Made by a program: the position numbers and the translations under genes. The notes beneath the pieces were generated by a model. That model was not told where the DNA came from. It saw only the letters and a program-made list of their open reading frames with translations, and searched no databases. Shown piece by piece: positions 1 to 12,814 of a stretch of 36,186 nt of DNA (positions are counted from its first letter, which is position 1; each line of letters begins with the position of its first letter). Source of the DNA: Candidatus Iainarchaeum sp. (GTDB taxonomy: Archaea > Iainarchaeota > Iainarchaeia > Iainarchaeales > UBA10191); the NCBI GenBank assembly GCA_030649735.1, contig JAUSFL010000001.1, forward strand, positions 1 through 36,186. The letters run 5' to 3'.

Positions 1-1097
1 GGCGGAGAGCCGGCAATATAATTATTGTTGGCTTGGAAAGTGCTGAGAACTCCAGCCCCCACGCTATAAAGGCTGTTGTTTGCGTGCATGCCAGAATCAA
101 CAAACAAGTTATTGAATACTCTTGCATTGGATGCCGCTCCAGCGTTTCTGGCATCGTTCTGATTTATATTCAAAAAAATCGTGTCTATTCTTGTATTGAT
201 AAAAGTATTGTTGTAAAATGACACGTTTGGAATATAAACATTGCAGGAATAGGCAACATTCACTAAAAGATTATTGCGAAACGTCCAATCACGAATATCG
301 GCAATTCCGTCTTGTGAAAGATTGCATAATTGGGCTTCAGAATTAGTGATTGTGTTGTTCTCAAAAATAATGTCATAGGCAGAATCGCCATTATTCCCAA
401 AAGTTTGAATGATATCAGTATGGTGGCCATTTTCCCACATATTAGTAAAATAATTTCCTCGGAAAATATGGTGCGCGCCAAAAGGCTGAATCACGTCAAA
501 ACCTCCGCCATTGGCGCCGTCAAAAGTGTTGTTTTCTATCAAATGGCTGTCGCCAAAAAGAAACAAGCTCACATACCCAATGTCCTTAATTATATTCCCC
601 TTGACAATGCAATGGCCTGCAGACTGTGACGGCAAATTGCCGCCTTTATTGAATTCAATGCCTGACGCACTGTCAAAAGGAACATCATGAAGCGTATTAT
701 TCAATATTTGACAGTAATGCGCGCCAGTGCCAACTGAAATCATTCCACGCCAAGCCACGGCCTCAGAAGTGCCAGTAATGTCAAAACCGTCAACAATCAC
801 ATAAGGCGCCGAAATGTTAATTTGGCTAGTGACAACAGCCCCATTAGCCTTGAAAGTCACTGGGCTTCCAGCACTCCCCCCGCGGCTTAAATTTACATTT
901 TCGTTATAGCCGCCAGCGCTTACAATGCAAGAATCCCCTGGAGAAACCATGCCTGTGCACTTTTGGATAGTCCTGAAAGGCTGCGCTTCACTCCCGGGAT
1001 TAGAATCACTGCCTGTGATCGAAACATTATAAGTTGCGGAAAAAGCAAAGCCTGCAAAAAGCAAGAAGAAAACCAGCAGCAATAATTTGAATCTCAT
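1..1097 (-). CDS. Secreted right-handed beta-helix (pectate lyase-like/DUF1565) protein, truncated at window start
   Basis: Not in the ORF track because it has no stop in the window. Manual translation from ATG 1097 gives the signal peptide MRFKLLLLVFFLLFAGFAFSA, then TYNVSITGSDSNPGSEAQPFRTIQK...PGD (DUF1565-like motif) and repeated IxNN/FxNNT beta-helix motifs. Confidence 0.85.
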   Translation of the reverse strand, partial: MRFKLLLLVFFLLFAGFAFSATYNVSITGSDSNPGSEAQPFRTIQKCTGMVSPGDSCIVSAGGYNENVNLSRGGSAGSPVTFKANGAVVTSQINISAPYVIVDGFDITGTSEAVAWRGMISVGTGAHYCQILNNTLHDVPFDSASGIEFNKGGNLPSQSAGHCIVKGNIIKDIGYVSLFLFGDSHLIENNTFDGANGGGFDVIQPFGAHHIFRGNYFTNMWENGHHTDIIQTFGNNGDSAYDIIFENNTITNSEAQLCNLSQDGIADIRDWTFRNNLLVNVAYSCNVYIPNVSFYNNTFINTRIDTIFLNINQNDARNAGAASNARVFNNLFVDSGMHANNSLYSVGAGVLSTFQANNNYIAGSP

Positions 1098-1152
1098 TCA
1101 TTTAGAAAAAAGGGGTTTTAATATTTAATTCTAATGGATAACGTGGTTCTTA

Positions 1153-2535
1153 ATGGATTCTTTTGATTTCATCAGCCCTTTAGATTACAGGTATATTGGA
1201 AGAGACAAGGATTTTGCAAAAATTGCCGGCTTTTTTTCAGAAAACTCCCGCATCAAATACCAGGCTAAAATAGAGCTTGCGTTGATAAAAGCTTTAGCCG
1301 CAAGAAAAGTTTGCTCTCAAAAAGTTGTTGAAGAAGTAGAGAAAGCAATTCAGGAAATAAAAGCAGAAGAAGTTTACAATGAAGAAGACATTACAAAACA
1401 CGACATTAAGGCTTTAGTTAATGTGCTGCGCTCGAAAGTTTCTGAAGAGGCAAAGCCATTCATTCACTTGACTTCAACATCCTATGATATCGTTGATACC
1501 GCGAATTCATTGAGGTTTAAGGAAGGCACGCTGGAGCTTTTGATTCCCGCATTAAAAGAGCTTGAGAAAACCATAATTGAGCTTGCATTGCGGGAGAAAG
1601 AGACAGTGCAGATTGGAAGGACTCATGGGCAGCACGCAGAGCCAATAACTTTCGGGTATTTTTTGGCATGCTATGCAAGCAGGATTGGGCAAAGAATCAA
1701 GGAAATTGAAGCACGCGCAAATTCATTGAAGGGAAAATTTTCAGGAGCAGTTGGGGCATACAATGCTTCAAGCCTTTTCTTTGACAATGCGCTGGAGTTT
1801 GAGAAAGAAGTCCTTGCGCAATTGGGCCTTTTGCCAAGCGAGTCTTCAACTCAAATCATAGAGCCAGAGCCATTGACTGACTTAAGCCATGCAGTGGTTT
1901 CCTGCTTTGGGGTTTTGGCAAACTTGGCCGATGATTTAAGGCATTTGCAAAGGAGCGAAATTGCGGAAGTCGCGGAAGCCTTTGATTCAAAGCAGGTCGG
2001 CAGTTCAACAATGCCTCACAAGCGCAATCCAATAAACTTTGAGAACGTTAAAAGCTTTTACAAAGAATTCATGCCGCGCATGACTTCAGTCTATCTGGAC
2101 CAAATTTCAGAGCATCAAAGGGACTTGACTAATTCTGCAAGCCAGAGGTTTTTGCCAGAGCTTTTCGTGGGCTTTTATTCAAGCGTGAAAAGAATGGACA
2201 AAATTCTTTCAAAATTAGTGGTGGACAAGGAAAACATGCGAAAGAATTTTGAAACAGCAAGCGAAAGCATTATTGCAGAGCCATTATACTTGCTGTTCGC
2301 TTTCAAGGGCCATCCTGACGCGCACGAGTTTTTGAAGCAATTGACGCTGAAGGCACAGCAGGAAAAAAAGCCATTGATTGAAATAATAAAGCAAGACAAG
2401 GAAGCCAAAGAATGGCTGGAAAAGCTTGATGAACGGCAAAAGGAAATCGCCCTCCAGCCTGAAAAATACATTGGAAAGGCTGTGGAAAAGACGGGCTTAA
2501 TTTGTGAACACTGGAAGAAAGAACTGAAAATTTAA
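1153..2535 (+). CDS. purB: Adenylosuccinate lyase
   Basis: Fumarate-lyase signature GSSTMPHKRNP, plus GRTHGQHA, ISPLDYRY and HQRDLTNSA. Confidence 0.97.
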   Translation: MDSFDFISPLDYRYIGRDKDFAKIAGFFSENSRIKYQAKIELALIKALAARKVCSQKVVEEVEKAIQEIKAEEVYNEEDITKHDIKALVNVLRSKVSEEAKPFIHLTSTSYDIVDTANSLRFKEGTLELLIPALKELEKTIIELALREKETVQIGRTHGQHAEPITFGYFLACYASRIGQRIKEIEARANSLKGKFSGAVGAYNASSLFFDNALEFEKEVLAQLGLLPSESSTQIIEPEPLTDLSHAVVSCFGVLANLADDLRHLQRSEIAEVAEAFDSKQVGSSTMPHKRNPINFENVKSFYKEFMPRMTSVYLDQISEHQRDLTNSASQRFLPELFVGFYSSVKRMDKILSKLVVDKENMRKNFETASESIIAEPLYLLFAFKGHPDAHEFLKQLTLKAQQEKKPLIEIIKQDKEAKEWLEKLDERQKEIALQPEKYIGKAVEKTGLICEHWKKELKI

Positions 2536-2593
2536 TTTATTAATAGCGAAAAAGCCGAAAATGCCCCAAAAAGTTCTTAAAAGCCAAAACCTA

Positions 2594-2646
2594 TTTAAAT
2601 AAGATAAGAAAAAGAATATATAACACATTAACTAGTATTAGTTAAT
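2594..2646 (+). promoter_or_regulatory. TATA box plus 20-bp near-palindrome (candidate operator) upstream of the protease gene
   Basis: TTTAAATA at 2594-2601. ATTAACTAGTATTAGTTAAT at 2627-2646 is an inverted repeat with one mismatched pair. Confidence 0.5.
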
Positions 2647-2660
2647 TTGGGGGTTTTTGA

Positions 2661-3383
2661 ATGAAAAAGATATTAATTGCGGCATTAATTGCCTTAGTAC
2701 TCTTTGGATTCTTGGCAGTGGCAACACGGCCTGAAAAAGAAGACAAAGGGCCTTTAGAAAAAATAACTTTCATACATTACAAAAAAGGAACTCACGAAGC
2801 AAACAATTCCGGAAAAGCCAAGCCAGGAACATCCTGCTACTCTTTCTTGAGCACTGGCGCAAAATGGAAAACAACAGAGCCTTTCGCAATCAATCCATCA
2901 AACAATGACAGCGTAAGCGAAACAGCCGTTCAAAACGCAGTAAATGCCGGAGTTGCAGAATGGGAAAAGTCCGGCGGAAACATTTTTGGGAACGGAAGCA
3001 TTGACTATACTGCAAGCTATAATGGCGGAGCCTTGGATGGAATTAATACAGTAACTTTTGGAGACCTGGGCAATCAAGGAATCATTGCAGTAACCACTAT
3101 TTGGGGTTATTTCAGCGGGCCAACACAATCAAGGGAACTTATTGAATGGGACTTGCAATTCAATGATTACTTCCAATACGGCGATGCAACAACAACTGAT
3201 TATGTAATGGATGTGCAAAACATTGCAACCCACGAACTAGGGCACGCTGCAGGAATGGCTGACTTGTACACAGTCTCATGCAATAATGAAACAATGTACG
3301 GTTACAGCTCTGTTGGAGAAACACAAAAGCGCACTTTGAACATCGGCGACATTAAAGGAATAAAATTGCTTTACGGGGCCTAA
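2661..3383 (+). CDS. Secreted matrixin-like zinc metalloprotease (metzincin)
   Basis: Signal peptide; HELGHAAGMAD (HExxHxxGxxD) zinc motif; Met-turn ETMY. Confidence 0.85.
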   Translation: MKKILIAALIALVLFGFLAVATRPEKEDKGPLEKITFIHYKKGTHEANNSGKAKPGTSCYSFLSTGAKWKTTEPFAINPSNNDSVSETAVQNAVNAGVAEWEKSGGNIFGNGSIDYTASYNGGALDGINTVTFGDLGNQGIIAVTTIWGYFSGPTQSRELIEWDLQFNDYFQYGDATTTDYVMDVQNIATHELGHAAGMADLYTVSCNNETMYGYSSVGETQKRTLNIGDIKGIKLLYGA

Positions 3384-3424
3384 AACAGCCCTGATTTTTC
3401 TTCTTTTAATCCTTCCTTTTTGAC

Positions 3425-4513
3425 TCAATAGTCTTCAAAGACAATTTGCTTGGGCTTTATTTCAACTTTTTTAGGCCCTAAGACAGTCCTGCCTAATTCA
3501 AAAACTTCAAGGCCTGATTCCTTGCTGGCTTTTTGGATTGCTTTCGCGCTTTCTTCAGGCGCTATAACAGCATAGCCGATCCCCATGTTCCAAGTATAGT
3601 ATGCTTCAGAATCTGGAAGATTGCCTTTGCTTTGCAAAAATTTGAAAAGTTCGCTTGATTCTGGAACAAAATCAATCTTATAGGAAAAGTTCTTTTTGGC
3701 GCGCATTATTTTCTTCCACCCGTGCCCGGTGATTGGAGAAAAATAATGCACTTCGCAAGTTTCAAGGATTTTTTTAACGACTGGAGAGTAAAGCGCAGTG
3801 GGCTTGAGCAATTCTTCGCCCAAAATTTTGCCGGATTCAGGCAATTCTGTAAAATAGCCGTCAGAAAGGCCTTCAGCAATTTTTCTTGCAAGGGAAATTC
3901 CATTGCTGTGGATTCCAGAGCTTTGAATTCCAAAAATAAAGTCCCCAGCCTTCAAGTTTTGGCCAATTGTCAAATTCTGTTTTGGCTTTATCAAGCCGAC
4001 TGAAGAGCCGGCCAAATCCAAAGTTTCAGGAAAAACTACGCCTTTCAAGGTCGGGGTTTCACCGCAAGGAATTGCAATCTGCAATTCAACGGCGGCCTTC
4101 CTATAGCCTTCCAAAAGCGCTTGCGCTTTTTCTTCAGTGAACCAGTTGGAATCCCCAGTGCTTATTATGTCGCCGTAAATTATTGGCTCTGCGCCAATTG
4201 AGGAAAGGTCATTAGTGCTCATTGCGACAGTGTCAATTCCAATGCTCTCATAATATTTTACTCCCTTTCCGCGCGAGTCATTGCTCATTGAGTCTGCAAT
4301 CAAATTCTTTGTACCCAATCCTTCAACATTGAATGCGAGGTAGAAATCCTGCTCTGGAAAGTCTATCGCAACAGCGCTTTCGCCTAAAGTCCCATTGACC
4401 AATCGCAAGCCGAATTTTTTCGGAGAATCCATTGTTTCAGAGAACTTTTGAATCGCGGCCTTCTTTACAGGATCAAGCTTTGAATAATCAACAATGTCGG
4501 AGTACTTCATCAA
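3425..4513 (-). CDS. purM: Phosphoribosylformylglycinamidine cyclo-ligase (AIR synthase)
   Basis: EGLGTK, CGETP, SSGIHSNG and WNMGIG motifs; same-strand cluster with purL/purQ. Confidence 0.92.
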   Translation of the reverse strand: MMKYSDIVDYSKLDPVKKAAIQKFSETMDSPKKFGLRLVNGTLGESAVAIDFPEQDFYLAFNVEGLGTKNLIADSMSNDSRGKGVKYYESIGIDTVAMSTNDLSSIGAEPIIYGDIISTGDSNWFTEEKAQALLEGYRKAAVELQIAIPCGETPTLKGVVFPETLDLAGSSVGLIKPKQNLTIGQNLKAGDFIFGIQSSGIHSNGISLARKIAEGLSDGYFTELPESGKILGEELLKPTALYSPVVKKILETCEVHYFSPITGHGWKKIMRAKKNFSYKIDFVPESSELFKFLQSKGNLPDSEAYYTWNMGIGYAVIAPEESAKAIQKASKESGLEVFELGRTVLGPKKVEIKPKQIVFEDY

Positions 4514-5929: not shown

Positions 5930-8895
5930 TAAAAATCCCTCAATGTTTTCCTGTAAGCTTCATTCAAGTCCTTGATTGAATTCTTGCAAACTGCCTTGCC
6001 ATTCAAGCCCTTGATTTCCAGGCCGTTTCCTAAAACAACCCCGATTTTTGAGAATGCATTGCCTTGCATTAACTGCTCAAATGCGGCAGAGTCTTTTGGA
6101 GCCACAGTGACAATAATCCTGCCTGCTGATTCTGAAAAAAGCAAAGCGTCATTTCTTGAAATACCTTCCAACGGGGTTTTCTGCAAGTCAATTTGCGCTC
6201 CGCAATTGCCTGCAATACATGCCTTTGCCAAGGCAATTCCCAAACCGCCAAAGCCGACAGGAATTGAAGAAGCAACTAATTCTTTGTCAATTGCCTGGCT
6301 TAAAGAATTGTAAATTCCAATTGATTTTTCGGCATTCACTGAAGGCACGTTTTTTCCGACAAATCCCTTGGAAGCGTAATATTCAGAGCCGCCAAGCTCA
6401 TTCTTTGTCAGGCCCAAGGCATAAATGAAATCGCCTTCAAGCTTGAAGTCTATTGAAACGCTTTTTTCGGCATTGTCCATTATTCCCAGCGAGGAAATCA
6501 AGAGCGTTGGAGGCACTGAAATCTTGACTGGAGAATTGCTTTCGTCAAAGCCTGCAAAGTCATTGAACATGCTGTCTTTTCCGGAAATGAACGGAGTCCC
6601 AAAATTAACTGACAATTCAAAGCAAGCCTGCACTGAATCCTTCAATTGCCCCAAGCGTTCAGGCTGCAAGGAAGAGCACCAGCAAAAATTATCCATCAAT
6701 GCAATGTTTTCCAATTTTGTTCCAACGCAAACCAGGTTTTTTATTGCGGCATCAATCGCGCACGCGGCCATTTCATAAGTGCTAATGTCGCCGTACTTTG
6801 GAAACAAGGCCTGCGATAATGAAACAGCGCGCTTGCTTTGCAAAACCGGCCGCAGCACTGTTGCTTCGGCATTGACTTTTCCAGCGCCCTGCAATGGCTT
6901 TAGGACGCTTGTTCCCTGGACTTCAAAATCATACTGTGTTGAAACAAACTCTTTGCTGCAAATGTTCAATCGCGCAAGCATTGCAAGCAATTCTTCAGAA
7001 AGGCTTTCAGGCTCCTTGAATTCCGGCTCTTTCAGGTCTTTTGGAAAGTTTGCGCTTTTCAGGACTTTTTTCGGCAATCCGTCATGCAAGAACTTCAGGT
7101 CTATTTCCATTATTTTTTGGCCATTGCTGTTCACAATGCATTTTCCCGAATCATTGAATTCTCCAATTACTGTGGATTCTACTCCGCGAGAATCCATCAG
7201 GTCCAAAAACTTTTGCACTTTTTCCTTTGGAATTGCCAAAGTCATGCGCTCTTGGCTTTCTGAAACCCACACTTTCCAAGGCTGCATTCCAGGATATTTT
7301 ACCGGAATTTTCTCCAATTCCACAACGCAGCCATTGCATTCTTTGGCCATTTCAGCGACAGAACAGCTAAGGCCTCCGGCTCCATTGTCTGTAATGCTGT
7401 TAAACAATTCCAAATCGCGGGCTTCTTTCACTATTGCGTCGCTTAATTTTTTCTGCGTGATTGGATCGCCAATCTGCACTGCAGTTGCCGGGCTTCCTTC
7501 AGTCAAGGCTTCTGAAGAAAAAGTCGCGCCGTGAATTCCATCCTGTCCAACGCGGTTTCCAACCATTACAATTGCGTCTCCAGGCAATGCGGCTTTTTCA
7601 GTGGAGTCTTTTCCATTAACTTTTCTAGGAATCAGCCCTAAAGTGCCTACAAAAACCAGCGGCTTTCCCTTATAACGCTCTTCAAAATACAAGAATCCTT
7701 GAGGCGTTGGAATGCCAGAGCAGTTTCCTCCAACATTCACGCCTTCAATGACTCCAAGCATTATTCTTTCAGGCAGCAAAATCGGGCTTTGCCTGTCTTT
7801 TGCCTTGAACAATAATTTGGCGTCCTTGGGGTCTGCAAAGCAAAACCCGTAACGGTTTATTATTGGCTTTGCGCTCATTCCAAAACCAATCGCGTCCCTA
7901 TTGACGCCAACAATTCCGGTAATTGCGCCGCCGAAAGGATCCAAAGCGCTTGGGGAATTGTGCGTTTCTGCCTTGTCTGTAACAAGGAATTTTTCGTCAA
8001 AAAACAACGCGCCTGAATTGTCGACAAAAACTGAAGCGCACAAGTCCTTACTTCCCTTCAATGCGCGGATTTGCTCTGTTGACTTTTGGATTTTTTCCTT
8101 GAACAAACCACCTTTGATCTCGTCAAGCTCTGCGGCAAAAATCGTGTGCTTGCAGTGCTCGCTCCAAGTCTGCGCAAGGCTTTCCAATTCAATGTCTGTG
8201 GGCTTTCTTTGCAATGCATTGAAATAATCGCGAATAACTTTCATTGAATCCAAATCCAAGGCCAAAGGCCCTCTTCTAGACCCGTCAGAATCCGCGATTC
8301 CTTTCTTTCCAATTACAATCAATTCCTCGTCAGGAACATTCAAGTCAACCAAGTCAGAGTTTGGCGACTGATTCAAGCGAACTTTTGGCACTATCAAGTC
8401 CATTCCATTGTCTTGCGAGAATTTTTCCCAGCCTTTAATATGGATTCTTTGAATCAAAGGGTTTGCGAAAGACTTCGCGATTTTTTCAGCATCATCCGGA
8501 CTGGTTTTTCCGCGCAAGTAAAAAACCTGCGAGTAATAAACAGTTGTTCCTTCGGCTTTTTCTCCAAAAAAGTCATAAATTGTTTCAGCCGCGGTGTTTC
8601 CAACATTGTCTGTGACTCCGGGCAAAAAGCCTGTTTCAATCGCAAAATCAAAAATGCCCTGCAAAGAAGAAATCATGCCGTTTCCATTTATGCGAAAGCC
8701 CTGCATTACAGGGTTTGAAAGCAAAGAACCGCACTTTTCCAAGTCCGCAAGCTCTAGCTTTGGCGAAGAAACAGTGTAAACATCAATCACATCGACAGCA
8801 TTAACTGCCTTGAATCCAAGCGCGTGAATTTTCTTCAGCTTCGTCAAAGCGCGCGCGTCAGGAATTTTTGAAAAAACCTCAATTCTACAGTCCAA
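5929..8895 (-). CDS. purL: FGAM synthase PurL with N-terminal PurS-like repeats
   Basis: QTWSEHCKH, ETHNSPS, DGIHGA, DNGAGG, SESQERM and ISGKDS motifs. Start moved from 8967 to TTG at 8895 (SD-like GGTGG upstream). Confidence 0.95.
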   Translation of the reverse strand: MDCRIEVFSKIPDARALTKLKKIHALGFKAVNAVDVIDVYTVSSPKLELADLEKCGSLLSNPVMQGFRINGNGMISSLQGIFDFAIETGFLPGVTDNVGNTAAETIYDFFGEKAEGTTVYYSQVFYLRGKTSPDDAEKIAKSFANPLIQRIHIKGWEKFSQDNGMDLIVPKVRLNQSPNSDLVDLNVPDEELIVIGKKGIADSDGSRRGPLALDLDSMKVIRDYFNALQRKPTDIELESLAQTWSEHCKHTIFAAELDEIKGGLFKEKIQKSTEQIRALKGSKDLCASVFVDNSGALFFDEKFLVTDKAETHNSPSALDPFGGAITGIVGVNRDAIGFGMSAKPIINRYGFCFADPKDAKLLFKAKDRQSPILLPERIMLGVIEGVNVGGNCSGIPTPQGFLYFEERYKGKPLVFVGTLGLIPRKVNGKDSTEKAALPGDAIVMVGNRVGQDGIHGATFSSEALTEGSPATAVQIGDPITQKKLSDAIVKEARDLELFNSITDNGAGGLSCSVAEMAKECNGCVVELEKIPVKYPGMQPWKVWVSESQERMTLAIPKEKVQKFLDLMDSRGVESTVIGEFNDSGKCIVNSNGQKIMEIDLKFLHDGLPKKVLKSANFPKDLKEPEFKEPESLSEELLAMLARLNICSKEFVSTQYDFEVQGTSVLKPLQGAGKVNAEATVLRPVLQSKRAVSLSQALFPKYGDISTYEMAACAIDAAIKNLVCVGTKLENIALMDNFCWCSSLQPERLGQLKDSVQACFELSVNFGTPFISGKDSMFNDFAGFDESNSPVKISVPPTLLISSLGIMDNAEKSVSIDFKLEGDFIYALGLTKNELGGSEYYASKGFVGKNVPSVNAEKSIGIYNSLSQAIDKELVASSIPVGFGGLGIALAKACIAGNCGAQIDLQKTPLEGISRNDALLFSESAGRIIVTVAPKDSAAFEQLMQGNAFSKIGVVLGNGLEIKGLNGKAVCKNSIKDLNEAYRKTLRDF

Positions 8896-8981
8896 AAAAA
8901 GCCACCAGCCCCAAACTCCCCATTTAGAAAGGAAGAAAACAATTAAAAACTCCGCCAAAAAAAACAATTTTGGCTTTTAAA

Positions 8982-9257
8982 CTACTGCACAGTGCAGTCG
9001 CTGCCTTTGCAAAAGCCGTCAATTCCGCAATAATAGCTTGCATTGACGCATTTCAAAAGATTTGGAGCGCCAGGACTGCAGAAAGAACTCATGCTTGAAA
9101 CAGAACAGTCATTATTGCCAGTGCAGGGAATGCTTTGTGCATTGCAGGAGACTGTATAATTGCCTGCGCCGGGCTGATTGCTGAAAAAAAGAAAGTATGC
9201 CGCAACAACTGCGATTGCCAGAATTAAAATTCCCGCAATGACTAATTTGCTCTTCAT
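8982..9257 (-). CDS. Small membrane-anchored or secreted Cys-rich protein
   Basis: N-terminal hydrophobic helix and 8 Cys. TATA-like CTTAAATA at 9280-9287 (minus strand) fits a leaderless transcript. Confidence 0.7.
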   Translation of the reverse strand: MKSKLVIAGILILAIAVVAAYFLFFSNQPGAGNYTVSCNAQSIPCTGNNDCSVSSMSSFCSPGAPNLLKCVNASYYCGIDGFCKGSDCTVQ

Positions 9258-9282
9258 AATTTAATTCAGGATTTTCTAATAT

Positions 9283-9426
9283 TTAAGGCTTTTCAAGGCT
9301 GGTTTTTTGCAAAAATTCTGTTTTGTAGTAATTGCAGTGCTTTTGCAGACTGCACTTTGAACAATTAGGGTTTCTCGGAAAGCACTTGCGCTGGCCGAAC
9401 TTTACCATCAGTTCGTTGATTTCAAG
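9283..9426 (-). pseudogene. nth: Orphan 3' end of endonuclease III (displaced nth C-terminus)
   Basis: Translates as LEINELMVKFGQRKCFPRNPNCSKCSLQKHCNYYKTEFLQKTSLEKP*. Matches the nth C-terminus at 22/34 residues; C-x6-C-x2-C-x5-C is intact. Confidence 0.9.
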
Positions 9427-9427
9427 C

Positions 9428-10497
9428 TTATTCAATTTACGACTGGAAGTCTGGCTAAATAAGCATTAATAAAGTGCAATTCAGAATATTCAATATATGA
9501 ATAGGCAAATTACCTTGGGAAAAGAGACAGGTTCAATCGCTGGGCACATTCTTGGAGACGGATCAATAACTGCAAGAGATAATGCAGTATTCTTCTCAAA
9601 CACAGACATTTCATTGCTGTCAGAGTTTTCAGAAAACATGATGGTTGTGTTCGGCGTTGAACCCAGAATCTGGGTTCAAGAAAAAAGAAGTTTTGAAGAA
9701 AAAACTAAATGGAAATTTAGGGCTAATTCATTAAAGGATATAGAATTTGGGTGTCCTGTTGGCTTATTTTATAAAAAAATCTGCGGAGTACTTCTTAATG
9801 CTGCTTTAGGCAATTTTGCCATTGGAAAAGATAAAAAGATAACTGAACAAATCATTACCGCACCAAAAGAATTCAAGAAAGCATTAGTTCGGGCTTTTTT
9901 TGATGATGAATGCACAGTAGATGTGCTTTCAAGAAACATACGGGTTTTTCAAGACCGACCTGCACTACTCGAGGACTTTAGGAAATTGCTGAAAGAATTT
10001 GAAATAAATTCAAGCGAACTTCATTTTTATCTAAAAAGAGAAAAACAAAGGTATTATTTCAACATTTCTGGCTTTGACAACTTAGCCAAGTTTGAAAGAA
10101 TAATTGGATTTACAGCAACTGAGAAAATGAACAAGTTAGCAATTTTAATTAAGAAATTAAATGAAAGTAAAACAAAAAGATTATGCAAAAAAGAGGCAAA
10201 ACACAAGATTTTGGAAATCATAAAAAATAACTCTCAGCCATTATGCCTTAAGGAAATAACTAAAGAATTGAGAAATTACAGTGCTAGGATTAAATGGAAT
10301 GAAAGTACGGTTTTAAAACACTTAAAATGGCTTGTTGAAGAGAAAATAATATCTAGAGAAAGAAAAGGAATTAGGTTTTACTGGTCTTGCGAATATAGTA
10401 ATCACAAATCTTTTGAAGATGGCAAATTTCGCATTTCGGTTTTCTTGTAATGCAAACTCTTTGTCCGTGCTTTACCATTAACTCATTCAATTCAAGC
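9428..10497. mobile_element. Free-standing homing-endonuclease insertion carrying a replacement nth 3' end (~1070 bp)
   Basis: Bracketed by TTCAAGC (9421-9427 and 10491-10497) at the same nth codon position. Contains the LAGLIDADG ORF and the current nth 3' end. Confidence 0.72.
9497..10450 (+). CDS. Two-motif LAGLIDADG endonuclease with C-terminal winged helix
   Basis: Motifs IAGHILGDGSI and LVRAFFDDECTV; FSNTD; IGF near the domain end; wHTH-like KILEII...EITKEL...STVLKHLKWLVEEKII. No intein splicing motifs. Confidence 0.88.
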   Translation: MNRQITLGKETGSIAGHILGDGSITARDNAVFFSNTDISLLSEFSENMMVVFGVEPRIWVQEKRSFEEKTKWKFRANSLKDIEFGCPVGLFYKKICGVLLNAALGNFAIGKDKKITEQIITAPKEFKKALVRAFFDDECTVDVLSRNIRVFQDRPALLEDFRKLLKEFEINSSELHFYLKREKQRYYFNISGFDNLAKFERIIGFTATEKMNKLAILIKKLNESKTKRLCKKEAKHKILEIIKNNSQPLCLKEITKELRNYSARIKWNESTVLKHLKWLVEEKIISRERKGIRFYWSCEYSNHKSFEDGKFRISVFL

Positions 10498-11009
10498 CAG
10501 TATGGTTTTGGGACTTTTTTCATTAAATCTAACCTAATCTTGTCAGCTTCCTTCTCCTTTGTCAATCCAAGCCGTTGCGATATGACAGCAACATGAACGT
10601 CAACTGGAATATCAGGAATTCTAAAAGCATAAACTAAAACGCAACCGGCAGTTTTCTTTCCAACTCCGGGCAGGCTTGTGAGCTCTTCCAAAGTTTTTGG
10701 GACTTTTCCATTGAATTTTGAAAGCAAGAGCTTTGAAGCTTGAATAATGTGCTTTGCTTTGGTTTTGTAAAAACCGACTGGAAAAATCAGTTTTTCAATT
10801 TCTCGCGGAGAGGCGCGAGAAAGCTTTTCCGGAGTTGGGAATTTTTTGAACAGGCGCAATGATGCTGGAAAAGTCGTGGTGTCCTTGGTGCGTGCTGAAA
10901 GAATTGTCGCAATCAAAGTCTTGAAAGGCGTTGCATGCAGGACTGCTGGCGTTGTCACTCCAATTTCTTTGCGGAGCAAAAGCATTATTGCATGAATGTT
11001 TTTTTTCAT
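10371..11009 (-). CDS. nth: Endonuclease III (HhH-GPD DNA glycosylase, 4Fe-4S)
   Basis: LIATILSART, HhH LPGVGKKTA, PVDVHV, and C-x6-C-x2-C-x5-C. Confidence 0.96.
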   Translation of the reverse strand: MKKNIHAIMLLLRKEIGVTTPAVLHATPFKTLIATILSARTKDTTTFPASLRLFKKFPTPEKLSRASPREIEKLIFPVGFYKTKAKHIIQASKLLLSKFNGKVPKTLEELTSLPGVGKKTAGCVLVYAFRIPDIPVDVHVAVISQRLGLTKEKEADKIRLDLMKKVPKPYWLELNELMVKHGQRVCITRKPKCEICHLQKICDYYIRKTSKT

Positions 11010-11013
11010 AAGA

Positions 11014-12096
11014 TTATAGTCTTCTGCCAGAACGCTTTAATTTTATGGCGTCAAAACGCCTCAAGGCCTGCTTTGCAAACAAACCGGTTTTCGTGAGGTC
11101 TGGCTCTTCTGTAAAAACCCCGAAATATTTCCCGCCTAGAATTACCCGCTCTTTAGCTTTGCGAGCGCCAACCCATCCTTTAAGCATGTTCATTTTGAAA
11201 GGCAAATTTTTTCCCAAAATATCCCTCAATGATTCGCGTTTCCAGCTTCCTAAAGAAAGCTGCGGAGTGTACAAATAATCCTGGCCAAAAAGGTAAGATT
11301 TTCCGTCTGGCGAAAAAACAACATTGACTGGAAGGCTAAGCCCGGGCATTATTGGAACTCCCATACCGAACAATGCATAACCTTGCAATTCCCCGGGTTT
11401 TCCTTTAGTCGCTTCAACCAATGCCTGCCTTACTTTTCCGCCTCGCTTGCCGCGATAGAATTCATCCCTTACAAGAGTTTCTGAAGCCAGGCTTTCCTTT
11501 CTGACTTCTTTAGGAATTATTCTAGAAATTTCCGCAGGCCATGGATGCCGCTTTTCATAAGCATTGGTTGCAACGCTGATTACTGTTGCTCTAGACCCTA
11601 AAGACTTGATTGCTGAAAAAATTGCCTTCAATTTTTCTGGAGCCTGCCTGTCAAAGCGCAAGTGCTCGCGGTCTATTGAAAGATTCACTCTAGGCCTGCC
11701 GCACTTTTCAAGCAATGCTTTGACTTCTCCGGAATTTTTTGAGAAAAGAAAATAATTGGTGGTAACTGCAACGTTTTTTCTGCCTAAAATTCCGCAGGCG
11801 TAAGAAATCATTCTCGGCGCGTCCTTGTTCAAGAAAGGCTCGCCGCCTGCAACGCAAATTGAATGCTCTTTTCCAGTAATTCTGCCAAGCTCGCGAATTT
11901 GGTCAATTATGCCCTTGAATTCTTCAAAAGTAGTGTCCTTTCCAGAACCAGCATTTCCATACCCAAATCTTCCGTCCTGAAAGCAAAAAGAGCACTTGAA
12001 CTGGCAACGCGGAGTAATATCAATTCCAAAATTACTACTAAATTGAATTCGCTCTTCGCCAAAATTAGTAAAGCTTGGACGGGCCACAAAAACCAC
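11014..12096 (-). CDS. Radical SAM protein, function unknown
   Basis: CQFKCSFC, GGEPF, VTTN and LSIDREH motifs; very basic C-terminal half without SPASM cysteines. Confidence 0.88.
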   Translation of the reverse strand: MVFVARPSFTNFGEERIQFSSNFGIDITPRCQFKCSFCFQDGRFGYGNAGSGKDTTFEEFKGIIDQIRELGRITGKEHSICVAGGEPFLNKDAPRMISYACGILGRKNVAVTTNYFLFSKNSGEVKALLEKCGRPRVNLSIDREHLRFDRQAPEKLKAIFSAIKSLGSRATVISVATNAYEKRHPWPAEISRIIPKEVRKESLASETLVRDEFYRGKRGGKVRQALVEATKGKPGELQGYALFGMGVPIMPGLSLPVNVVFSPDGKSYLFGQDYLYTPQLSLGSWKRESLRDILGKNLPFKMNMLKGWVGARKAKERVILGGKYFGVFTEEPDLTKTGLFAKQALRRFDAIKLKRSGRRL

Positions 12097-12100
12097 TAAA

Positions 12101-12814
12101 TTATCTTCCTAAAACATCCCACATTACTTCATCCTTGTCGTTGATGACTATTCCTTTGTTATTGATTTCTAAAGGATGGATTTTCTTGCTGTGGCTTGTT
12201 CCCCTGAGCTTTCTTATGAAAACACTCCGGTTTGGCGGCATGAAGTATAATGCAATTATTCCGTCAGCAACAAACTCTTCAACGCCGAATGCTGAAAAGT
12301 CGCTTCTTCCGCCCTTGGTTTCAGCAACCAGCAATGAAGTGCAATCAAGCTCTTTCAAGGAATCGCAAAACTCGTAAAGGATGTTCCTCAATTCTCCATC
12401 ATTTGAAATTCTGGCCCCAAAGGCAGTAGTGCTGTCAACAACCAGGCGCTTGATGTTGAATTCCTTGCACATTTTGGAAATAATCCTTAATTCTGCCTCT
12501 ATCTGCTGGTGCAATTGCTCTGGCCTTGTTGCAGTCAAGTTCAGCTTGTAAATTTTCAGCATGCTTTTGTCCTGCAGCCGTTTCAAGTCCCAGCCAAAAT
12601 TCTCCATGTCCCACGCGATTGCCTTTTGATTGGCCTCAAAAGTCACGTACAAGCCGGCCTCATTAAATTTTGTCGCGCCATTGTACAAGAACTGCATTGC
12701 AAGGATTGTTTTTCCAGTTCCTGCGGCCCCGGCAAGCAGTATTGAAGCCCCGGTTGGGATTCCGCCATTCAAAATCTTGTCCAATCCGTCAATGCCAGTC
12801 AAAATTCTCTGCAT
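12101..12814 (-). CDS. KaiC/RAD55-like RecA-superfamily ATPase (single domain)
   Basis: TGIDGLD, Walker A GAAGTGKT, LVVDS, EEFVADGII and KLRGTSH motifs. Confidence 0.92.
   Translation of the reverse strand: MQRILTGIDGLDKILNGGIPTGASILLAGAAGTGKTILAMQFLYNGATKFNEAGLYVTFEANQKAIAWDMENFGWDLKRLQDKSMLKIYKLNLTATRPEQLHQQIEAELRIISKMCKEFNIKRLVVDSTTAFGARISNDGELRNILYEFCDSLKELDCTSLLVAETKGGRSDFSAFGVEEFVADGIIALYFMPPNRSVFIRKLRGTSHSKKIHPLEINNKGIVINDKDEVMWDVLGR

Follow-up and report, generated by a model that had tools for sequence, protein, structure and literature searches.

A probable intron-less homing element, combining a LAGLIDADG gene with a foreign 3′ part of nth, in an archaeal chromosome

The window analysed here is the whole of a 36,186-nucleotide (nt) stretch of contig JAUSFL010000001.1 (assembly GCA_030649735.1, Candidatus Iainarchaeum sp.). 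Its host is a small groundwater archaeon, and a selfish gene has inserted into the host's nth gene, which encodes an endonuclease III-like HhH-GPD glycosylase. At the locus, nth meets, on the opposite strand, a gene for a free-standing LAGLIDADG homing endonuclease, and across this gene from nth lies a second nth 3′ end, referred to below as the orphan. We compared the arrangement with G001, a genome of the same genus, with the metagenome contig L116, and with relatives of the endonuclease from a genome collection and a metagenome collection. The features of the locus are the following.

10371..11009, minus strand: chimeric nth (endonuclease III-like HhH-GPD glycosylase), 212 amino acids, intact
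10693..11009, minus strand: native 5′ part of nth (codons 1 to ~105), ending at an uncertain boundary within 10655–10692
10371..10692, minus strand: imported 3′ part of nth, with codons ~106/118–172 as the apparent co-conversion tract
inside 10371..10692, minus strand: codons 173–212 of nth, the substitute [4Fe-4S] end
9497..10450, plus strand: free-standing LAGLIDADG homing endonuclease gene, 317 amino acids, assigned on the basis of Pfam, AlphaFold2 and Foldseek
9428..9496, plus strand: end of the element beside the orphan, with the 5′ leader and promoter region of the endonuclease gene; homologous to L116 2220–2279
9283..9427, minus strand: orphan, the displaced native 3′ end of nth, 47 codons and a stop, no internal stop
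10491..10497: heptamer TTCAAGC, upstream copy, read on the minus strand as the G of TGG followed by CTT GAA; start of the duplication
9421..9427: heptamer TTCAAGC, downstream copy, at the insertion junction TGG|CTT, a position that recurs when L116 is compared with G001

The nth product matches the HhH-GPD family of Pfam (E = 4.3e-24). Its best NCBIfam match is TIGR01083 (nth) with 190.3 bits, which is under the equivalog cut-off of 211.7, as is the score of the G001 protein (205.1 bits). The current terminus reads ..YWLELNELMVKHGQRVC-x6-C-x2-C-x5-C and holds four cysteines in a C-x6-C-x2-C-x5-C arrangement; the inserted end is in frame with the host nth and completes the gene, leaving an intact HhH-GPD domain and all four cysteines. 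The frame of the orphan (9283..9426, minus strand) is free of stops over its 47 codons and reads LEINELMVKFGQRKC-x6-C-x2-C-x5-C. BLASTP aligns the two ends with 25 of 43 residues identical (E = 7e-16), 22 residues being shared over the first 35 codons, and the orphan's match to EndIII_4Fe-2S of Pfam (E = 0.0011, 19.6 bits) falls just below the cut-off of 20.5. An initial annotation of this DNA, made from its letters alone, had described a second, stop-free 47-codon end with four cysteines and the heptamers at 9421–9427 and 10491–10497, and both descriptions are correct. As it had also stated, deletion between the heptamers restores nth: excising these 1070 nt fuses TAC TGG in frame to CTT GAA ATC. 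The final 80 nt of the endonuclease open reading frame (ORF) are antisense to the 3′ end of nth. Direct reading of the sequence suggests two TATA-like candidates, ATTAATAAA at 9465–9473, about 28 nt before the endonuclease ATG, and TTAAATAT over the stop codon of the orphan, some 21–29 nt before the ATG at 9257.

The endonuclease matches LAGLIDADG_3 of Pfam (PF14528) in two stretches (E = 2.8e-14) and carries a C-terminal winged-helix domain at residues 234–304. No intein family was among its Pfam matches, and NCBIfam matches to intein-containing proteins were confined to the endonuclease part. The gene lies on the opposite strand to nth and encodes no Hint or intein domain; the in-frame embedding and the splicing blocks by which an intein is recognised are thus both missing. 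Acidic residues are present in both LAGLIDADG motifs (GDG at 20–22 and DDE at 136–138), and an alignment of 33 sequences shows no variation at G20-D21-G22 or D136 and almost none at D137 and E138. The initial annotation of an opposite-strand LAGLIDADG ORF with acidic residues in both motifs and without intein motifs is therefore upheld by Pfam and by this alignment. The AlphaFold2 model has a pLDDT (predicted local distance difference test) value of 91.3 and contains two α-β-β-α-β-β-α halves. A Foldseek search returned matches with a probability of 1.00 to 7qsu, 1dq3 and I-DmoI, with a template modelling score of 0.64–0.70 for I-DmoI (target side); the matches include the intein endonuclease domains of TliVMA and PI-PfuI, I-DmoI, and WhiA (3hyi, 8dy9). 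A profile of the family also matched PI-PfuI (1dq3; E = 5.1e-8).

Comparison with G001 and L116 reveals the locus with and without the element. In G001, a KaiC-like gene, nth and an EamA gene stand on one contig, nth is uninterrupted, and no LAGLIDADG ORF lies between them. Its nth terminus, ..KKYWLEINELMVKFGQRKCFPRSPNCFACSLQKHCGYYK.., is of the orphan type. Over 35 codons the orphan of the window and the G001 end have 19 identical codons, 12 with synonymous changes only and 4 with amino acid changes, which amounts to 31 of 35 residues, compared with 22 of 35 for the current end of the window. The proposal that the orphan is the ancestral end is borne out by this endonuclease-free relative. 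Positions 1089–2219 of L116 are 99.65% identical to G001 (1131 nt, 4 mismatches), and this identity spans the EamA gene up to the base next to TGG. Beyond the junction, L116 continues with a 60-nt leader and then with a 424-residue endonuclease, 57% identical to that of the window. The L116 nth is tail to tail with this gene, and its last 101 residues agree with the current nth of the window at 68 positions and with that of G001 at 56; the G001-type end is present in L116 as an orphan (2221..2084, minus strand). In the last 29 nt of the contig, within the helix-hairpin-helix motif, the match to G001 returns with 28 of 29 positions. Because of the 99.65% identity of the flank and this renewed match, G001 and L116 are the empty and the occupied allele of one lineage, and the element shows a presence/absence polymorphism at one defined site within a nearly identical flank. 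The window and L116 have the insertion junction TGG|CTT in common, and also the leader and promoter at this end of the element. Of the four positions at which L116 and G001 disagree, two belong to a single codon (ATA versus AGC) no more than ~8 nt from the junction (L116 ~2205–2219, L004 2013–2025), which may be donor-derived sequence or scarring from repair at the cut site.

Contigs of a sequencing run from a different study, X2, were about 83–93% like the window over 8800–9427 and 10654–11033. The match of one contig ends exactly at 9427, the contig itself extending 45 letters further, and another contig continues past 10660 with unlike letters that encode RKTANIVLA on the minus strand, as in G001. 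No joint across 9428–10497 was present among the assembled contigs of four sequencing runs; this comparison used contigs, not raw reads, and the gap in X2 cover at 9428–10653 proves nothing.

The nth gene of the window is a chimera, with a native 5′ part and a foreign 3′ part that begins at about codon 106–118. Residues 9–105 are 78% identical to G001, the next best relative reaching 60%, and the values against G001 for residues 106–172 (60%) and 173–206 (62%) are no better than those against relatives at the level of the order. We compared 41 Fe-S-type nth genes in 820 pairs. Conservation is usually higher in the middle segment than in the 5′ segment (mean difference +0.139, standard deviation 0.083), and the pair formed by the window and G001 has the lowest middle-minus-5′ difference of all, −0.186. 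By maximum chi-square analysis the break falls at codon 106 (~10692 of the window), nucleotide identity being 0.73 on its left and 0.54 on its right, and 1 of 1000 codon permutations attained the observed statistic. The X2 contigs place the import boundary at ~10655–10660. Separate trees of the two parts, which the initial annotation had proposed, disagree with each other: the 5′ part groups the window with G001 (support 99/99), and the 3′ part (residues 118–206, 47 rows) groups it with the current ends of L116 (98/91). With L116 included, an approximately unbiased (AU) test of the 3′ part rejected the grouping of the window with G001 (p = 0.015, log-likelihood difference 65.3). On the strength of the 3′ tree, the AU test and the lowest value among the 820 pairs, the inserted nth end is foreign.

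The imported span is thus ~1.23–1.27 kilobases (kb) long, from 9428 to ~10655–10692, and consists of the endonuclease gene together with a foreign stretch of nth of ~285–320 nt. Of this stretch, just the final ~125 nt have a surviving counterpart, the orphan, and the imported tract extends ~55–65 codons upstream of the duplicated part. The earlier proposal of an element that invades nth and supplies a replacement end therefore stands, with its scope widened to these upstream codons, to a large family and to a truncated endonuclease.

A protein search returned 89 homologues of the endonuclease, all with E ≤ 1.9e-40 and labelled Pacearchaeota, Woesearchaeota, Nanoarchaeota or Iainarchaeota; a label of Candidatus Paceibacterota, a bacterial group, on homologue P0028 could be due to mis-binning or to an occurrence across domains. 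In the genome collection, nth adjoins the endonuclease gene in 22 of 22 close loci, and the addition of three genomes of the window's order brings this to 25 of 25 (22 convergent, 3 tandem). From the metagenome scan 80 of 139 relatives were kept; 70 of these loci are convergent and abut nth, one (L190) has nth 2.3 kb away, and nine lie on contigs that end within 541 nt. Merging 105 loci from the two collections at ≥95% endonuclease identity gave 77 clusters. In 69 of them nth is adjacent (66 convergent, 3 tandem), in one it is 2.3 kb away, and in the remaining 7 the contig ends too early for adjacency to be assessed. The two frames abut with no base between the stop codons in 13 of 22 convergent loci of the genome collection and in 35 of 70 of the metagenome collection; the remaining convergent loci overlap by 3–107 nt, the window by 80 nt, among proteins less than 50% identical (L062-L083, L110-L112, L116-L195).

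Orphan C-terminal fragments of nth are found across the endonuclease gene from nth in 34 of the 77 clusters, and they are always 3′ fragments. The orphan of L067 starts at a codon identical to that of the window, and in L072 an orphan of the ..CDYY type stands opposite a current end of the ..GVNKHR type. For the tandem loci L074, L080 and L081, a search for downstream orphans gave chance-level matches only. The distribution of the family is sporadic: it occurs in 4 of 196 genomes of the window's order (E ≤ 1e-15), and beside nth in none of the 60 nearest relatives.

Two loci depart from the common layout. In L190, the 3′ end of nth (1–282, plus strand) and the endonuclease gene (2599–3654, plus strand) are separated by two ORFs of the opposite strand (295–2551, minus strand), one of which has a reverse-transcriptase-like motif (..YIRYVDDFVIL..); this insert is perhaps a group II intron or a retron within the element. 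In L173 an nth end (1–90), the endonuclease gene (245–1276) and a second fragment resembling an nth end (1267–1404, plus strand) follow each other on the same strand.

Taken together, these data indicate that the locus is very probably occupied by a homing element with neither intron nor intein, in which a LAGLIDADG gene is combined with a foreign nth 3′ part in an archaeal chromosome. We propose that the endonuclease gene would travel with the foreign nth 3′ part, the two being tail to tail. The enzyme would cut an endonuclease-free nth close to where YW|LE is encoded, shortly before the [4Fe-4S] loop, and an occupied allele would serve as the template from which repair copies the element. 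The crossover on the upstream side would fall inside nth, in or near the conserved LPGVGKKTA motif, and in the window its resolution would have overwritten ~55–65 native codons with donor sequence. Downstream, the orphan of the donor would pair with the native end of the recipient. The native 3′ end would then stay behind as an untranslated orphan and could act as a homology arm in later homing events, and the donor-type 3′ end would restore a complete nth whose differences from the empty site might block renewed cutting. Both occupied alleles differ from the empty site of G001 at 6 of the 24 nt past the junction; an I-to-L change, an F-to-H change and synonymous changes are common to both.

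However, several observations weigh against this interpretation. The segment boundary in the comparison of 820 pairs was picked after the identity profile had been viewed, and the AU test without L116 did not reject the grouping of the window with G001 for the 3′ part (p = 0.096). In the 3′ tree without L116 the window grouped with L019 (98/92), probably an effect of long branches. The orphans of the family start anywhere from about codon 137 to about codon 185, and there is no single universal junction. The left junction of the occupied alleles retains TACTGGCTTGAA unchanged and only 6 differences follow in the next 24 nt; immunity is for this reason not evident from the sequence. Cleavage and its position, the resistance of the occupied junction and the role of the orphan as a homology arm are suggested by LAGLIDADG homing in general and by the fungal cases discussed below. 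The mostly intact ORFs and the very constant tail-to-tail fit would also suit a partner protein that is useful to the host.

A further difficulty concerns the endonuclease itself, as that of the window is without an N-terminal domain of ~109 codons found in all 32 aligned relatives, a region that is helical and confident in the model of the L116 protein. The window and L116 have kept the leader (ACGACyGGAAsTCT ... ATTAATAA) and the codons ATG AAT, and homology returns at codon ~112 of L116; judged from this alignment, the window endonuclease is an in-frame N-terminal deletion derivative, and its remaining 317 codons stay open. The loss of this domain makes present-day activity doubtful. The gene is probably a decaying copy and may be inactive, and the deletion resembles a stage of the decay that homing endonucleases pass through.

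Among other explanations, we consider it unlikely that the ORF is a domesticated, WhiA-like LAGLIDADG DNA-binding protein which works with or regulates nth, so that adjacency would reflect function. Such a partner would fit the adjacency to nth in 69 of 77 clusters and the one further case at 2.3 kb, the exact abutment of frames in 13 of 22 and 35 of 70 convergent loci, the intact state of most ORFs, the presence of WhiA among the Foldseek matches, and the fact that the window ORF has stayed open despite its N-terminal deletion. It is harder to reconcile with a family so sporadic as to occur in 4 of 196 genomes of the order, present and absent in two alleles with a flank 99.65% identical, accompanied by orphan ends in 34 of 77 clusters, and represented by broken copies with short frames in L143, L160 and L192. 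Moreover, the acidic residues at the catalytic positions are kept, and the chimeric 3′ part of nth travels with the endonuclease. A partner role may be conceivable for some lineages; it leaves the polymorphism, the orphans and the chimerism unexplained.

We also weighed readings in which no foreign gene end has been delivered by an element. That the 1070-nt insert is an intron, whether group I, group II or bulge-helix-bulge, with the orphan as the true last exon, is very improbable. Its excision does restore an in-frame nth, and group I introns with LAGLIDADG genes are described for rRNA genes of DPANN archaea in the part of PMC6125680 considered here. However, the insert carries its own in-frame end with four cysteines and a stop, the endonuclease gene is on the opposite strand, and the replacement of ~55–65 upstream codons is not explained by intron insertion. 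In agreement with the intron-less nature claimed in the initial annotation, an Rfam covariance scan of 8900–11200 on both strands gave no match at E ≤ 1, and cofolding of the junction regions yielded −19.1 compared with −18.8 ± 2.6 for shuffled sequences, with no helix beyond controls, bulge-helix-bulge included. The two similar ends flanking the ORF could also suggest that the 3′ end of nth was duplicated locally in tandem and that an unrelated event then inserted a LAGLIDADG gene between the copies, all without foreign DNA in nth; we give this scarcely any weight, as it is the orphan that is closest to G001, not the current end with its ~60 preceding codons, L116 is organised alike, with an end resembling that of the window in surroundings of the G001 type, and the architecture recurs in 34 of 77 clusters. 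Finally, the source is a metagenome-assembled genome of which contigs but no raw reads were compared, and assembly or binning might have fused the nth fragments of two strains. Such an artefact is most unlikely, since a single 22.7-kb contig of run X1 covers 8800–11300 with 0 differences (X1 is possibly the source of this DNA, and the agreement is thus non-independent) and the same architecture is found in dozens of independent contigs from other collections.

The homing element proposed here most resembles mobile ORFs of fungal mitochondria, for which the passages of PMC3630166 considered here describe the insertion of a foreign C-terminal part that displaces the native one (atp6, atp9, cox2 and nad3 of Glomus sp.), with atp6 of Allomyces macrogynus cited there as the original case of C-terminal replacement. 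In the same passages of PMC3630166, the native C-terminal part lies about 1 kb downstream and is nearly identical to that of a sister species. The likeness, as far as these passages go (PMC3630166), is as follows. A free-standing LAGLIDADG gene arrives with an in-frame substitute gene end; the native end is duplicated downstream and is closer to the gene of the relative, with mostly synonymous differences; and the donor is a foreign lineage, which for the window the trees suggest. In contrast to the fungal cases, the element resides in an archaeal chromosome rather than an organelle, and its target is the DNA-repair gene nth. The ORF is antisense and tail to tail in 66 of 77 clusters, whereas the fungal ORF in these passages is on the same strand and often in phase, a layout found here in the three tandem clusters and in L173. 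The endonucleases have an N-terminal helical domain, an intein-type LAGLIDADG_3 core and an optional winged helix, and replacement can extend over most of the gene.

A co-conversion logic also underlies intronless homing and marker exclusion in T4-like phages, where the free-standing endonucleases SegF, SegG and MobE cut genomes that lack them and repair co-converts the flanks. These phage enzymes are of the GIY-YIG or HNH type, are encoded in intergenic positions, act in mixed infections and leave no displaced gene end, whereas here a LAGLIDADG enzyme is encoded inside the 3′ region of a cellular gene. Closest in sequence and fold are PI-PfuI, the TliVMA intein domain and I-DmoI, monomeric enzymes with two motifs; unlike these, the present family has no intein splicing domain or intron, and the disruption is compensated by a carried gene end and not by splicing. 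In WhiA, a bacterial regulator of LAGLIDADG ancestry with a C-terminal helix-turn-helix, the domains come in the same order, the LAGLIDADG core first and the helix-turn-helix or winged helix after it. WhiA proteins have degenerate catalytic residues and are conserved and vertically inherited, in contrast to the family described here, which has retained its acidic residues and whose occurrence is sporadic and polymorphic. Searches of PMC and bioRxiv full text, supplements excluded, found no report that places a free-standing LAGLIDADG gene at nth or anywhere in a DPANN chromosome; the only paper found that combines LAGLIDADG with Woesearchaeota concerns, in the part considered here, group I introns in rRNA genes (PMC6125680).

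According to the part of bioRxiv 10.64898/2026.07.13.738334 considered here, free-standing homing endonucleases are usually held to be confined to intergenic sites, since a gene that took up such an insertion would be disrupted. Bringing along a spare end of the gene is a solution known so far from fungal mitochondria, and it is found here in cellular archaeal chromosomes. Its carrier is a large, previously uncharacterised protein family with 77 distinct elements in the two scanned collections, and its members are likely new nucleases that have long targets and accessory DNA-binding domains. G001 and L116 provide a natural pair of empty and occupied alleles for direct tests of archaeal homing. 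The element also offers a route by which parts of core genes may move horizontally among ultrasmall archaea, including an apparent exchange between Fe-S and Fe-S-free endonuclease III. For annotation and phylogeny it follows that nth may be a chimera in such genomes and that orphan ends are pseudogene fragments.

A different family of the window's order has one of two nth forms at a locus flanked by a DinB-like polymerase gene on one side and a small conserved gene on the other (L110-L115). The endonuclease-free genomes G013 and G041 have an Fe-S-type nth at this DinB-like locus, and G152, G166 and G168, with the endonuclease, and G056, without it, have a cysteine-free nth ending in ..VRFGKTYTSRKKKD... 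The cysteine-free and the Fe-S-type proteins are 35–39% identical, and the flanking genes 40–72%. In L112 and L172 a short Fe-S-type orphan (..CTARNPKCGGCFLNKKKLCPKIGV) lies beside the cysteine-free nth (L076/L112 ~1012–1095, L172 2527–2607). The DinB-like locus looks like a near-whole-gene replacement of nth driven by the same element family. More speculatively, and with less than even confidence, we consider a DPANN-wide family of nth-specific homing elements that would act as a gene-conversion engine, shuffling nth modules between lineages; the modules would vary in size between the final 40 codons and almost the entire gene. A [4Fe-4S] form could in this way be exchanged for a cysteine-free, basic-tailed form at one and the same locus, and selfish drive, not host selection alone, would then decide the kind of repair enzyme.

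The surroundings of nth differ between the window and G001. In the window, a radical-SAM gene (11014–12096, minus strand; Pfam E = 2e-12) is located between the KaiC-like gene (12101–12814) and nth, unlike in G001, where nth directly follows the KaiC-like gene. Downstream of nth, G001 has the EamA gene and the window a gene for a small cysteine-rich membrane protein and purL. The synteny of nth is therefore not conserved within the genus. The rRNA operon of the window's genome is best fitted by archaeal models in a clan competition, from which the domain call was taken, as a search with the archaeal small-subunit family also matched bacterial controls.

At the junction of element and orphan, 10 nt of the window (9428–9437) have no counterpart in L116. 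Together with their neighbours they read AAATTGAATAAG on the minus strand, similar to GAATTGAATGAG, the E-L-N-E codons of the current end; this likeness could be a remnant of the initial joining or a chance similarity in AT-rich DNA. The genome of the window contains a second, distant LAGLIDADG-like frame (G000:C30:141544-141924, L002; E = 2.2e-4, 28% identity) within an open frame of 336 amino acids.

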